Under the pieces are notes generated by a model, which did not search any database, was not told where the DNA came from, and saw only the letters and a list, made by a program, of their open reading frames with translations. DNA of 64,000 nucleotides from a virus (Duplodnaviria > Caudoviricetes), in the IMG/VR virus record IMGVR_UViG_2894787282_000001, positions 1-64,000 of that record; one strand, written 5' to 3'. The translations under genes and the position numbers were made by a program. Positions 56,400 through 59,228 of this stretch are shown one piece after another (position 1 is the first letter of the stretch; every line of letters starts with the position of its first letter).

Positions 56400-56740
56400 A
56401 CATCACCTTCGACCCTGCCGCCACAGGTGCAGATAAAACCGTCATCACTACATGGCTTCGCAGACCTGCGATCCTCAATCGCCCACACCTCAGCCCAGAC
56501 TCAATCATCGCGGTAGGTTTTGGCTCAGCCTTCTGTACTAAAGACCTTGAACTCATCTGCGACGAGCAAGACGTGCCGGAAGGAGATGAGTACAGAACCT
56601 GCGCTGACATCGAACTGCTGGCAGCTGCTGACCCGGACCATGACTGGCAGATCAATTACCACGCACCGCTGTACGACGCTGTCTATCAACGCCAAGACGG
56701 CTTCTGGGTGCTGATCGAAGAAGGGCGAGGTTTTGCATGA
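56396..56740 (+). CDS. Hypothetical protein
   Basis: 'IIAVGFG..A..DPDHDW.I..PL..YQRQ..WVL..G.GFA'. Confidence 0.7.
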   Translation: MNITFDPAATGADKTVITTWLRRPAILNRPHLSPDSIIAVGFGSAFCTKDLELICDEQDVPEGDEYRTCADIELLAAADPDHDWQINYHAPLYDAVYQRQDGFWVLIEEGRGFA

Positions 56741-57840
56741 ATAACCAGCACATCATCTTCGACTGCGAAATCATCGGCAAAGACAAGCCGGTCTTCCTGG
56801 TCCGCACGCTGAACGTCGAGACGCGCGAGCGCTGCGAGTTTTGGTATCACAAGCGCGGCCACATGAACAAGCTGGCGCGCATGCTGGCCACCCCGGACTA
56901 CACCTGGGTGGGGTTCAACAGCGAGAACTTCGACCGGCCTCTGATCGCCATGGCCATGGACCCGGAGTACGACGTGCACGGTATCAAAGAGCTGGCCACG
57001 ATCATCATCGAAGAACGGCTGCGCTCCTGGCAGACCTACAAGCAGTTCAACCTGGAGTTCATCGACTACGACCACATCGACCTGTTTGAAGTCATGCCTG
57101 GTGTGATGATCAGTCTGAAGACCTACGCCGGGCGCATGGGTTACAAGACCATGGTCGACCTGCCCTTCCACCACGACACCGACCTGACCCCAGCCCAGCA
57201 GAAGGTGCTCAGCACCTACTGCGACAACGATCTGGGTGTCACCGAAGCGGCGTTTCTGAGCCAGAAGACCGAGCTGGAGCTGCGTGCCGAGATGAGTGAA
57301 GAGTACGGCATCGACCTGCGCTCCAAGAGCGACGCCCAGATCGCCGAGGCCATCCTCAAGAAGCGCGTGGGCATCGGTGCTGGCTCCAAGCATGTACCGC
57401 ACAGTGTCGATTACGAGGCCCCTGACTTCATCGTCACAGACAGCCCTGTCATCAACGAGCTGGCCGACCTGCTCAGCCGCTTCCCCTTCGTGCTCAACCG
57501 TGGCAACGGCAGTCCGACGGCACCCAAGTTCCTCGACGAGCCAGTCGTCATCGGCAGTGGCACCTACCAGTGCGGCGTGGGTGGGTTACACAGCACCCAC
57601 GACAAAGCTATGTACCTCGAAGCCTCTGACGACTTGCTGCTCAGTGACTTTGACGTGGCCAGCTACTACCCCAACATCATGCTCAAGGCGGGCCTGGCTC
57701 CAAAGCTCGGTGGCAACAAGGGCAACAAGTTTCTCGAAGAGTACCGACACATCTACGAGACACGCATTGCGGCAAAGCGACGCGCTCAACAACTATCTGC
57801 TGAGATCAAAGTGATTGAGGCCCAGTTGGCAAATGGCTAA
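56737..57840 (+). CDS. polB: Family B DNA polymerase, N-terminal half (3'-5' exonuclease, motif A, first fingers helix)
   Basis: ExoI 'FDCE', ExoII 'FNSENFD', ExoIII 'YCDND', motif A 'DFDVASYYPN', 'R..AK'. Confidence 0.9.
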   Translation: MNNQHIIFDCEIIGKDKPVFLVRTLNVETRERCEFWYHKRGHMNKLARMLATPDYTWVGFNSENFDRPLIAMAMDPEYDVHGIKELATIIIEERLRSWQTYKQFNLEFIDYDHIDLFEVMPGVMISLKTYAGRMGYKTMVDLPFHHDTDLTPAQQKVLSTYCDNDLGVTEAAFLSQKTELELRAEMSEEYGIDLRSKSDAQIAEAILKKRVGIGAGSKHVPHSVDYEAPDFIVTDSPVINELADLLSRFPFVLNRGNGSPTAPKFLDEPVVIGSGTYQCGVGGLHSTHDKAMYLEASDDLLLSDFDVASYYPNIMLKAGLAPKLGGNKGNKFLEEYRHIYETRIAAKRRAQQLSAEIKVIEAQLANG

Positions 57841-58321
57841 TCGAACGTATCACGAGCGAGGAAAACTAATCCAAGGTTTTCCTTGCAAAAAGCACCCGCT
57901 CTATAACACCTGGGTGCTGATGCGTCAACGCTGCGACAACCCGAATAATCCAGCGTACCGTCATTACGGTGGCCGAGGGATCACAGTTTGCGAACGCTGG
58001 CAATCTTTTGAGAACTTCGCGCTGGACATGGGGATGAAGCCCTCGCAAAAGCATTCTCTTGAGCGCGAAGACAACGACAAGGGTTACTCGCCCGAGAACT
58101 GCAAATGGGAAACCGTTGAAGCACAACGGCTTAACCGACGTTGCTTTGTGACCAGCGAAAGCGGTCACACCGGAGTTCGCCAAATCAAACCCGGTTGCTT
58201 TCAAGCAATGGTTCATATCAACAAAGTGAGATATATCCTTGGAAAATTCAAAACCATCGAAGAAGCTGTCGCAGCAAGAACGAACTTCATTGCAAACAAA
58301 GCTGGAAAAGCTCAAAACTGA
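57833..58321 (+). CDS. HNH-type endonuclease with AP2 domain, inserted in polB
   Basis: 'HPLY..W..MRQRC.NP..Y..YGGRGI.VC.RW..F..DMG..SLER.DN..GY.P.NC.W..N', 'SG.TGV..LG.F...EEA..AR'. Confidence 0.92.
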   Translation: MANRTYHERGKLIQGFPCKKHPLYNTWVLMRQRCDNPNNPAYRHYGGRGITVCERWQSFENFALDMGMKPSQKHSLEREDNDKGYSPENCKWETVEAQRLNRRCFVTSESGHTGVRQIKPGCFQAMVHINKVRYILGKFKTIEEAVAARTNFIANKAGKAQN

Positions 58322-59228
58322 GCGACGCAAAAACCTTCAAGTTGCAAACGCGCTTAAGATTTGCCTTAACGGCACGTTCGGCAAACTAGGCAGCATTTAC
58401 TGCAGCTTCTATGCGCCTGAACTGATGCTCGCTGTGACGCTGACAGGCCAGCTCAACTTGTTGTGCCTCATCCACGAGCTGGAGAAGATCAAAGGTTGTA
58501 ATGTCAAGTCGGCCAACACCGACGGCCTACTTGTTGCCTACAAACCTAATGTTCGTGAGCGTGTGCTGAAAGTCTTTGCTAAAAACGCAAAGCACACGGG
58601 TTTCGAGTACGAAGAAACTCCGTACGCCAAGTACGCAGCCAAGGACGTAAACAACTTTATCGCTCTCAAGACCGACGGCAAAGTCAAGTCCAAGGGGCTA
58701 TACACCCTGAATGACCCCAAAGATAATCCGCTGTACCTGATGAAGAACCCGACGATGGACGTGTGCACACGCATGGTCATCGACTATCTCAAGTGCGGCA
58801 CACGCCCTGAGTCCAGCATCCTTGGTTACACCGACATGAAGGACTTCGTGGCCATCCGCAACGTCCAGGGCGGCGGCATCCAGTACACCGGGTACAAAAA
58901 GGTGGACGACTGGGTCGAGACCGCGCCGGGCAACTGGCGTCGTCCTGACTGGCCCAGCCTGAAAGCCTCGGTACGTCGCAAGTCGCGCCCCGCTCCGGTG
59001 GATGTCGGTGTCGGTGGTGAGCCCTTTGGGCGTGTCGCACGCTGGTACATGACGACGGCTGACCTGCCCCCGCTCACGTACCTCAGCTCGGGCAACCAGG
59101 TGCCCAAGACTGAAGGCGCTCGCATCTGCATGACGCTGCCCGACAAGCTGCCCAAGGACTTGAACAAACAGTGGTACGTCGACGAGGCGTACGCAATCTT
59201 GGAGTCAATCGGCGTGAAGGCGCGATAG
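58239..59228 (+). CDS. polB: Family B DNA polymerase, C-terminal half (motifs B and C, thumb)
   Basis: Motif B 'KICLNGTFGK', motif C 'NTDG', 'KSKG', C-terminal 'WY..EA..L..IG'; TTG start inferred. Confidence 0.88.
   Translation: MENSKPSKKLSQQERTSLQTKLEKLKTERRKNLQVANALKICLNGTFGKLGSIYCSFYAPELMLAVTLTGQLNLLCLIHELEKIKGCNVKSANTDGLLVAYKPNVRERVLKVFAKNAKHTGFEYEETPYAKYAAKDVNNFIALKTDGKVKSKGLYTLNDPKDNPLYLMKNPTMDVCTRMVIDYLKCGTRPESSILGYTDMKDFVAIRNVQGGGIQYTGYKKVDDWVETAPGNWRRPDWPSLKASVRRKSRPAPVDVGVGGEPFGRVARWYMTTADLPPLTYLSSGNQVPKTEGARICMTLPDKLPKDLNKQWYVDEAYAILESIGVKAR

Follow-up and report, generated by a model that had tools for sequence, protein, structure and literature searches.

How can a DNA polymerase gene that is cut in two by the gene of an endonuclease still give an enzyme, if neither RNA nor protein splicing puts it together again? 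This question is raised by a locus at 56737..59228 in positions 1 to 64,000 of the IMG/VR virus record IMGVR_UViG_2894787282_000001 (Duplodnaviria; Caudoviricetes), a stretch of 64,000 nucleotides (nt) hereafter called the window. Here, a family B DNA polymerase gene is divided at the turn of its fingers domain by a free-standing endonuclease gene, and each half carries an extra tail at the break. Comparison with relatives reveals the anatomy of this split, the absence of the insert from close relatives, the recurrence of the split with conserved tails, and genes in which the two tails are fused in one frame. The reading favored in this article, which is considered probable as a whole, is that a homing-endonuclease cassette split the polymerase, that the separately translated halves reassemble via the tails without splicing, and that the fused genes came later. 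All positions are those of the window on the + strand; relatives are designated by P (proteins), L (contigs), and H (GenBank records) numbers, and alignments by A numbers.

A divided gene for a family B DNA polymerase

The host sequence of the window is a bacterial chromosome (G000, contig 2, in a genome of 4.47 Mb), and the phage is a prophage. Three open reading frames (ORFs) make up the locus. The first, polB-N (56737..57840), encodes 367 amino acids (aa) ending in '...YETRIAAKRRAQQLSAEIKVIEAQLANG*', which comprise the 3′-5′ exonuclease part and the palm up to the first fingers helix, followed by a 19-aa tail and the stop codon. The last, polB-C (58239(TTG)..59228), encodes 329 aa starting with 'MENSKPSKKLSQQERTSLQTKLEKLKTERRKNLQVANALKICLNGTFGK...', in which a tail precedes the second fingers helix with motif B, the palm motif C region, and the thumb. 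Between them, a nuclease ORF runs to 58321 from a TTG at 57815 or, more likely, from an ATG at 57833; its product, 162 aa from the ATG, is a free-standing endonuclease with a probable AP2-type DNA-binding domain at its C-terminus. As calculated from the coordinates, the three ORFs use three different frames (polB-N 0, nuclease +1, polB-C +2). The nuclease ATG is located 3 nt before the TAA of polB-N (57838..57840) in the overlap arrangement ATGGCTAA, and the nuclease ORF overlaps polB-C by 83 nt (58239..58321). The ORF ends, the frames, and the 83-nt overlap given in an initial annotation of this DNA are the same in the ORF list. The Shine-Dalgarno (SD)-like energy at the TTG of polB-C is −4.9, and that at an alternative TTG, 58290, is −0.7.

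Both halves match phrog_1252, a 'DNA polymerase' family of 663 positions: the N half at positions 52–405 (5.5e-76) and the C half at positions 389–654 (1e-69). A sequence search of the PDB with the C half found family B polymerases (1s5j, 5.6e-05; Pol II, 1q8i, 6.5e-04), the N half alone gave a single chance-level match there, and neither half matched any family in Pfam. Family B polymerases share a fixed order of motifs: Exo I with DxE, motif A resembling DxxSLYPS, motif B resembling KxxxNSxYG, and motif C with a catalytic Asp. All four are present in this order across the two halves, namely Exo I FDCEI at residues 8–12 of the N half (56758..56772), motif A DFDVASYYPNIM at its residues 304–315 (57646..57681), motif B KICLNGTFGK at residues 40–49 of the C half (58356..58385), and motif C as SANTDG, with NTDG in place of DTDS, at residues 91–96 of the C half (region 58509..58535). 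Furthermore, a Foldseek search with the AlphaFold2 model of P0003, a relative in which the halves are fused, retrieved archaeal family B polymerases (4k8x and others) with probability 1.0, E 7e-16, and a template modeling (TM) score of 0.45. What is split is the replicative polymerase gene, of family B, of a prophage; that a free-standing endonuclease gene divides it where the fingers turn, as proposed in the initial annotation, is supported by phrog_1252, the PDB matches, and the alignment to unsplit relatives.

Boundaries of the inserted cassette

In the alignment with nine unsplit relatives (A1), the break is found between '...RIAAKR' and 'xxNxxVANALKI', 33 residues past motif A and 10 residues ahead of motif B. 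The short allele reads ...AAKR-AGNKK-VANALKI..., from which the N half in the window diverges after AAKR (57780) and to which the C half realigns at RKNLQ-VANALKI (58326). The alignment to unsplit homologs, a check proposed along with the initial annotation, delimits in this way a cassette of 545 nt relative to the short unsplit alleles (57781..58325), inserted where one fingers helix turns into the other; it lengthens the N half by 19 residues and the C half by about 29.

Short fingers are the usual form among the relatives. The unsplit close relatives (P0001, P0002, P0004–P0006, and others) have 645–650 aa with identity up to 90%. In 240 polymerase proteins, the spacing from motif A to motif B is 44–47 residues in 189 cases and 70–89 in six, the rest being split or unparsed; P0003 is also long-fingered and falls outside the motif B pattern used for this count. 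A wastewater contig with a related allele has 64 nt between the counterparts of 57758 and 58368, exactly the length predicted for a nuclease-free short allele, and nuclease-bearing contigs occur in the same wastewater runs as this nuclease-free allele.

The composition of the cassette is foreign to the polymerase gene: GC content at third codon positions (GC3) is 0.35–0.68 in the cassette vs. 0.78–0.97 in polB-N, and it drops from about 0.8 to 0.55 in the N tail. A fall in GC that extends some 450 nt into the C half was considered as a co-conversion tract and rejected, as the nuclease-free L005 and L006, used for the codon-wise comparison, dip in GC3 at the same relative place. Because this local dip to 0.55 at 58479..58660 is common to L005 and L006, it belongs to the polymerase gene itself and was not brought in by the insertion.

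The insert has an 8-nt direct repeat, AGCGACGC, exactly at each of its borders (57776..57783 and 58321..58328), in equal codon phase in the two halves (KRR and ERR). The repeat was spotted post hoc, and 8 nt or more are shared by chance in 282 of 5000 random pairs of loosely placed segments; it may be left over from the original insertion, or it may provide a substrate for precise loss. In-phase repeats shared by the DNA of the two tails are also seen at other split loci, such as L198 (10 nt, 2460/3017), L209 (10 nt, 2439/3134), and L200 (8 nt, 2440/3144), and L130 has none. These may be mere Lys/Leu-rich codons in A/T-rich DNA.

Helical tails and dual coding

The N tail, RAQQLSAEIKVIEAQLANG (57781..57837), is absent from the short unsplit relatives and doubles as the 5′ leader of the nuclease gene, with an SD-like GAGG at 57817..57820. 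The C tail, (M)ENSKPSKKLSQQERTSLQTKLEKLKTER (58239..58325), is likewise built on DNA with a second role: its bases 58239..58321 are also read in another frame as the AP2 helix of the nuclease, ...LGKFKTIEEAVAARTNFIANKAGKAQN*, and appear as ...TIEEAVAARTNFI... in the three-frame translation. The claim of the initial annotation that this tail is dual-coded with the AP2 helix is therefore correct, both frames being read from the same bases.

Following ...AK[RKH], the N tails conform to the consensus [RK]xx[QE][LI]xxEIxx[IL][EK]xxLxx. Of 15 N tails tabulated by eye, every one has an aliphatic residue at positions 5, 12, and 16, and 14 have one at position 9, a heptad-like spacing of 4-3-4. This pattern is kept where the host polymerases are only 35–40% identical. 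The tail of L011 has both synonymous and non-synonymous differences from that of the window with the hydrophobic pattern unchanged. On the C-terminal side, an AlphaFold2 model of the window C half alone has residues 12–46 as a single helix, which joins the tail to the motif B helix, and residues 1–11 as coil. The net charges of the tails are about 0 and +5 by our own count.

It is plausible, from these patterns and from the modeled structures, that the tails clamp the two halves together as an antiparallel helical pair. With conserved tails and a fused form that is modeled as a hairpin (see below), such a clamp is more plausible than a single locus would have made it.

Recurrence of the split

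The locus in the window is one of many that are split. At least 11 other split N halves of 352–380 aa (P0241 to P0356) were found in a length-restricted search, and a tail of this kind also terminates P0120, a protein of 671 aa that is extended at its N-terminus. In an exhaustive search of representatives, at least 11 other C halves open with a tail of helical type that starts some 27 residues ahead of 'LKI'. At least seven further contigs with the split arrangement, L011, L130, L198–L201, and L209, were found among IMG/VR and genome contigs, and the three genes stand together on one contig in L130, L198, L200 (with L199 and L201), and L209. Since the same tails are present on many other split copies, they evidently travel with the nuclease cassette. 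The initial annotation described the helical extensions on both halves as new; they are indeed lacking in the nearest unsplit relatives, and they are not new to this locus, recurring on at least 11 N and 11 C halves.

How often the gene is split depends on the loci considered. Among viral loci found with the N half, one of 24 is split; among 72 loci on genome contigs, there is one split gene against 54 unsplit ones, and the motif script left 17 unparsed; and among viral loci found with two related nucleases, split polymerases are present at five of 84. In a metagenome scan with the nuclease alignment A4, the nuclease lies between polymerase halves at none of the best 80 loci (L041 has the polymerase C part upstream), a set of best matches that says little about the frequency of the split.

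An extension of another kind is also known in this polymerase family: a 5′-3′ exonuclease domain (PF02739) is fused N-terminally to the same polymerase, giving about 1000 aa, in L011 (2783..5101), P0067, P0068, P0078, P0105–P0107, P0114, and P0120. L011 and P0120 combine the exonuclease fusion with the split.

The recurrence bears on whether the split gene is alive. The insertion might have inactivated the polymerase of a decaying prophage, in which case the C half would be untranslated and the tails would be nothing other than read-through of cassette DNA. The TTG start of the C half with its weak SD-like site could be understood in this way, as could the presence of at least five such endonuclease genes within about 12 kb of the prophage; in addition, no sequencing run recorded as RNA holds the stretch, and because only one of 300 other genomes from the bacterial family has a homologue, there is no way to judge selection in this host. 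However, both halves are uninterrupted, about 90% identical to intact relatives (90% between polB-N and unsplit P0001), and have kept every motif. Many diverged phage contigs have the same set of three genes, which is unexpected for independent dead genes, and the N tails conserve their hydrophobic positions against a background of variation at synonymous sites and elsewhere in the tail. A dead gene is therefore unlikely.

Fused genes and the order of events

Both tails are also found in frame within one-piece genes: P0003, P0013, P0025, P0098, P0470, P0477, L183, and L197. In P0003 (682 aa, 88% identical), the sequence ...AAKRRAQQLGAEIKEIEK is directly followed by LSPQERSSLQKKLEQLK..., and P0013, P0098, and L197 have comparable sequences at this place. 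When modeled with AlphaFold2, at a mean predicted local distance difference test (pLDDT) score of 91.8, P0003 has a helix at 328–361, a turn at 362–364, and helices at 365–370 and 372–403, which together form one long hairpin. In this model, the tip of the hairpin falls exactly at the junction between the tails, and the hairpin blocks have pLDDT values of 91–97. In the fused L197 (715 aa), ...IKARLKNG is followed by LSLQERHILEKQLAE..., and the nuclease ATG is still present in frame +1. Moreover, frame +2 of L197 reads ALIARAPYIGKTAS*, similar to nuclease C-termini such as that of P0171, and the frame relations are as in the window. In a sliding comparison, this apparent remnant ranks first among 160 alternative-frame translations of fingers regions, with a score of 35 vs. 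a mean of 14 (standard deviation 4.2) and 30 for the next.

Two orders of events are conceivable. In one, the long fingers came first: the nuclease entered the tip of a pre-existing long hairpin, and P0003, L197, and L183 are uninvaded ancestors or homing targets. Indeed, unsplit long-fingered genes are common among distant representatives and occur on the genome contigs L183, L134, L190, and L170 with spacings of 65–76, the C tail of L130 is encoded downstream of the nuclease ORF, and the fused P0477 matches the tail of the split P0393, a likeness whose direction can be read either way. In the other order, the split came first and the fused forms are deletion scars, derived from split genes and not ancestral to them. 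Sequence comparison favors the latter on three grounds. The C tail in the window is read from the bases of an AP2 helix conserved across a nuclease family of thousands, which a pre-existing polymerase exon could hardly have supplied; L197 retains the nuclease ATG, an apparent C-terminal remnant with its stop, and the frame relations of the window; and most relatives in the close clade of the window (at least 80% identity) are short-fingered. The invasion of an already long hairpin is accordingly held to be quite improbable. The initial annotation had named unsplit homologs with the long helices as evidence that would speak against it. Such homologs do exist (P0003 and others), but they look derived from split ones.

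The fused genes also speak against a further proposal made there, namely that dual coding of the tail keeps the nuclease gene from being cleanly deleted and so retains it without splicing. The fused forms have shed the nuclease body and kept the dual-coded part, and in the window the in-phase 8-nt repeat would allow a clean in-frame excision to ...AAKRRKNLQVANALKI..., which has the length of the short allele.

The fingers tip has received other material as well. L017–L027 and their relatives, which are Pseudomonas/Xanthomonas-phage-like, have a distinct Ala/Lys-rich extension of 14 residues at the same place, and insertions seem to favor this tip in general.

Absence of introns and inteins

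In a search of 55500..59500 against Rfam 15 at E<=10, the only match was RF02819, an unrelated Vibrio antisense RNA, with 19 bits against a gathering score of 90. The nuclease ORF covers the insert except for about 56 nt (about 52 nt upstream and 4 nt downstream), which is too little space for a ribozyme core. Neither a Hint domain nor any other Pfam domain was found in the three products, which are encoded in three frames with stops. On these grounds, the initial annotation rightly saw neither an intron nor an intein here. That the insert is nonetheless removed from RNA or protein, or bypassed by the ribosome, to leave a single P0003-like polypeptide is highly improbable, even though the naturally occurring fused forms are exactly what a hypothetical junction between '...IEA/K' and 'LS.QER' would produce: beyond the points above, other split C halves have their own ATG, N halves stop at a conserved distance, and a translational bypass of 400 nt is without precedent to our knowledge.

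Proposed mechanism

The favored course of events, from the split to the fused genes, can be outlined as follows. A free-standing homing-endonuclease cassette would have invaded the polymerase gene at the point where a short fingers hairpin of two helices turns. The leader at the 5′ end of the cassette, read in the polymerase frame, supplies the N half with an amphipathic helix of 19 residues and a stop codon, the same DNA holding the ribosome-binding site and the ATG of the nuclease. Its 3′ end, read one frame off the AP2 helix, supplies the C half with a putative start codon and with about 29 residues of tail. The halves would be translated separately and then reassembled with no splicing of RNA or protein, the tails extending both fingers helices into an antiparallel pair by which the chains stay joined. 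The cassette would spread by cutting nuclease-free alleles. Later loss of the nuclease body would give a one-piece polymerase with fingers longer by about 35 residues.

Several points weigh against this scheme. As for translation, polB-C starts with TTG at a modest SD-like site (−4.9; −4 is reached by 19% of background positions), in contrast to the ATG of most other split C halves, and among the sequencing runs on record as RNA none holds the stretch; four wastewater runs are labeled RNA-Seq, are probably DNA, and consist of contigs, so they are silent on splicing and expression. As for the clamp, the hairpin is modeled only in the fused relative P0003, whose alignment (A6, 46 rows) has few long-fingered rows, and the tails need not be zippers: in NrdA of phage Aeh1 (see below), the tails are dispensable for the association of the halves, according to the published report (PMC3045599). 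As for the origin of the tails, the C tail of L130 lies almost wholly beyond the nuclease ORF, with an overlap of only 22 nt; an origin by overprinting is thus valid for the cassette type of the window and not for all. As for the order of events, a hidden Markov model of the nuclease family found nothing significant in the other frames of 80 fingers regions, L197 included, the remnant in L197 is a match of 14 residues, and the fingers spacing in the family ranges from 44 to 89, with some long forms (L017–L027, spacing 58) that have no tail-like sequence.

A broader and more tentative interpretation is that the cassette could be a self-neutralizing parasite, bringing with it a portable helical clamp of which one arm is overprinted on the AP2 helix. 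The clamp would persist as a fingers extension of about 35 residues after decay of the nuclease, and selfish DNA would thereby repeatedly become new structure in an essential enzyme. The healed allele, its target site being gone, may also be immune to re-invasion.

Comparison with known systems

Genes split by free-standing endonucleases have been reported in other phages. In Aeromonas phage Aeh1, with the gene order nrdA-a/mobE/nrdA-b, tails derived from the cassette rescue the nuclease-split NrdA and are essential for its activity, and more fragmented genes with such tails were predicted, as stated by Crona et al. (2010; PMC3045599). The likeness to the window is close: a free-standing endonuclease splits an essential replication-related gene, splicing is not involved, and tails at the new C- and N-termini come from the insertion. 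The window also has the sequence features of the Aeh1 type, that is, a gene contiguous in relatives, a free-standing endonuclease gene between the halves, and unique tails. Unlike in the window, the Aeh1 enzyme is a class Ia ribonucleotide reductase and the nuclease is MobE. The Aeh1 tails are reported to be oppositely charged and to act in the dimerization of heterodimers, not in joining the halves, whereas those of the window are heptad-like and would prolong an existing hairpin. Further differences from Aeh1 are that one tail of the window is overprinted on the nuclease ORF and that uncut and apparently healed alleles exist in relatives.

The T4-type polymerases provide a second parallel. 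In Aeromonas phages 25 and 44RR, gp43A and gp43B are encoded by two cistrons, and the halves co-purify and have polymerase activity, according to a review (PMC2988022) that describes the work of Petrov et al. (2010). As in the window, a family B phage polymerase is encoded in two cistrons, with a free-standing endonuclease gene in phage 25 (PMC2988022). In contrast to the window, gp43 of the T4 type belongs to a different and much larger lineage than phrog_1252; its intercistronic sequence is untranslated, and phage 25 has a group I intron as well (PMC2988022). Fractured genes with split inteins, as described by Dassa et al. (2009; PMC2677866), likewise have an endonuclease between halves of an essential gene that must meet after translation. 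There, the halves are ligated by trans-splicing (PMC2677866); the window lacks a Hint motif or Pfam domain, and its product would therefore stay as two chains.

The locus is a further case of the principle published for Aeh1 NrdA and T4-type gp43, in another polymerase lineage. The literature searched, which covered few subscription papers and no supplements, yielded no account of this nuclease splitting a polymerase of this lineage; nor were an overprinted tail, a heptad pattern conserved over many copies, or healed long-fingered descendants found described in it.

One gene family would display all three stages in the life cycle of a homing endonuclease within an essential gene, namely the uncut gene, the gene cut and provided with tails, and the healed gene with its scar. 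Should the tails clamp the halves, they would be a compact and transferable means to reassemble a split polymerase without inteins, and the healed forms would show that mobile-element DNA, including an overprinted frame, can last in a domain that contacts the incoming nucleotide. For annotation, half-genes of this kind should not be labeled pseudogenes, and the 'extra-long fingers' of some phage polymerases may record past invasions.

The nuclease and its relatives

The nuclease matches phrog_374 'HNH endonuclease' (2.5e-47) and has 3562 homologues, the closest of which is 67% identical. Its likelier start is the ATG at 57833, because this has a stronger SD-like energy than the TTG at 57815 (−5.6 vs. 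−2.7) and GAGG upstream. In Pfam, the protein of the window has no match at E<=1; among 12 aligned homologues, three match AP2 (PF00847; best 4.6e-07) and none matches an HNH family. The label 'HNH-AP2' used in the initial annotation is only partly supported, by phrog_374 and by these three homologues, but neither by a Pfam match of the protein itself nor by any Pfam HNH family among the 12.

In the nuclease alignment A3, the AP2 helix has T141, E144, A145, and A148 invariant and R149 nearly so. The core reads [LV][DE]RxDN...GY.P.NC.W (DRxDN...N), with no His at the first HNH position, and the invariant H7, H21, C34, C53, and C90 suggest a zinc site. The sole solved relative found is PacI (3ldy), with a weak profile match (E 0.24).

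We infer that the nuclease moves by homing, in that it would cut a nuclease-free allele and be copied into it; the same site is occupied in polymerases that are 35–90% identical, and uncut alleles occur in the same metagenomes. Among the phages in GenBank, no near-identical DNA was found and, in 1022 records, no nuclease more than 60% identical. No cultured phage with this cassette was found, the GenBank records inspected being only H60 and H6, whose annotation hinted at a split and which are both unsplit.

The split gene is surrounded by a phage replication module with an SNF2 helicase gene (54314..55693), a second endonuclease gene (55690..56193), and more phage-family genes downstream. The second endonuclease gene directly follows that of the helicase and is of the zf-His_Me_endon/HNH_3 type. 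In total, the prophage holds at least five such endonuclease genes within about 12 kb. Three of its genes are paralogues of the splitting nuclease, 40–49% identical to it, and are located within about 10 kb downstream, at 62662..62910 and at 63958..64000 and beyond (G000:C2:590982, 592278, and 596497).

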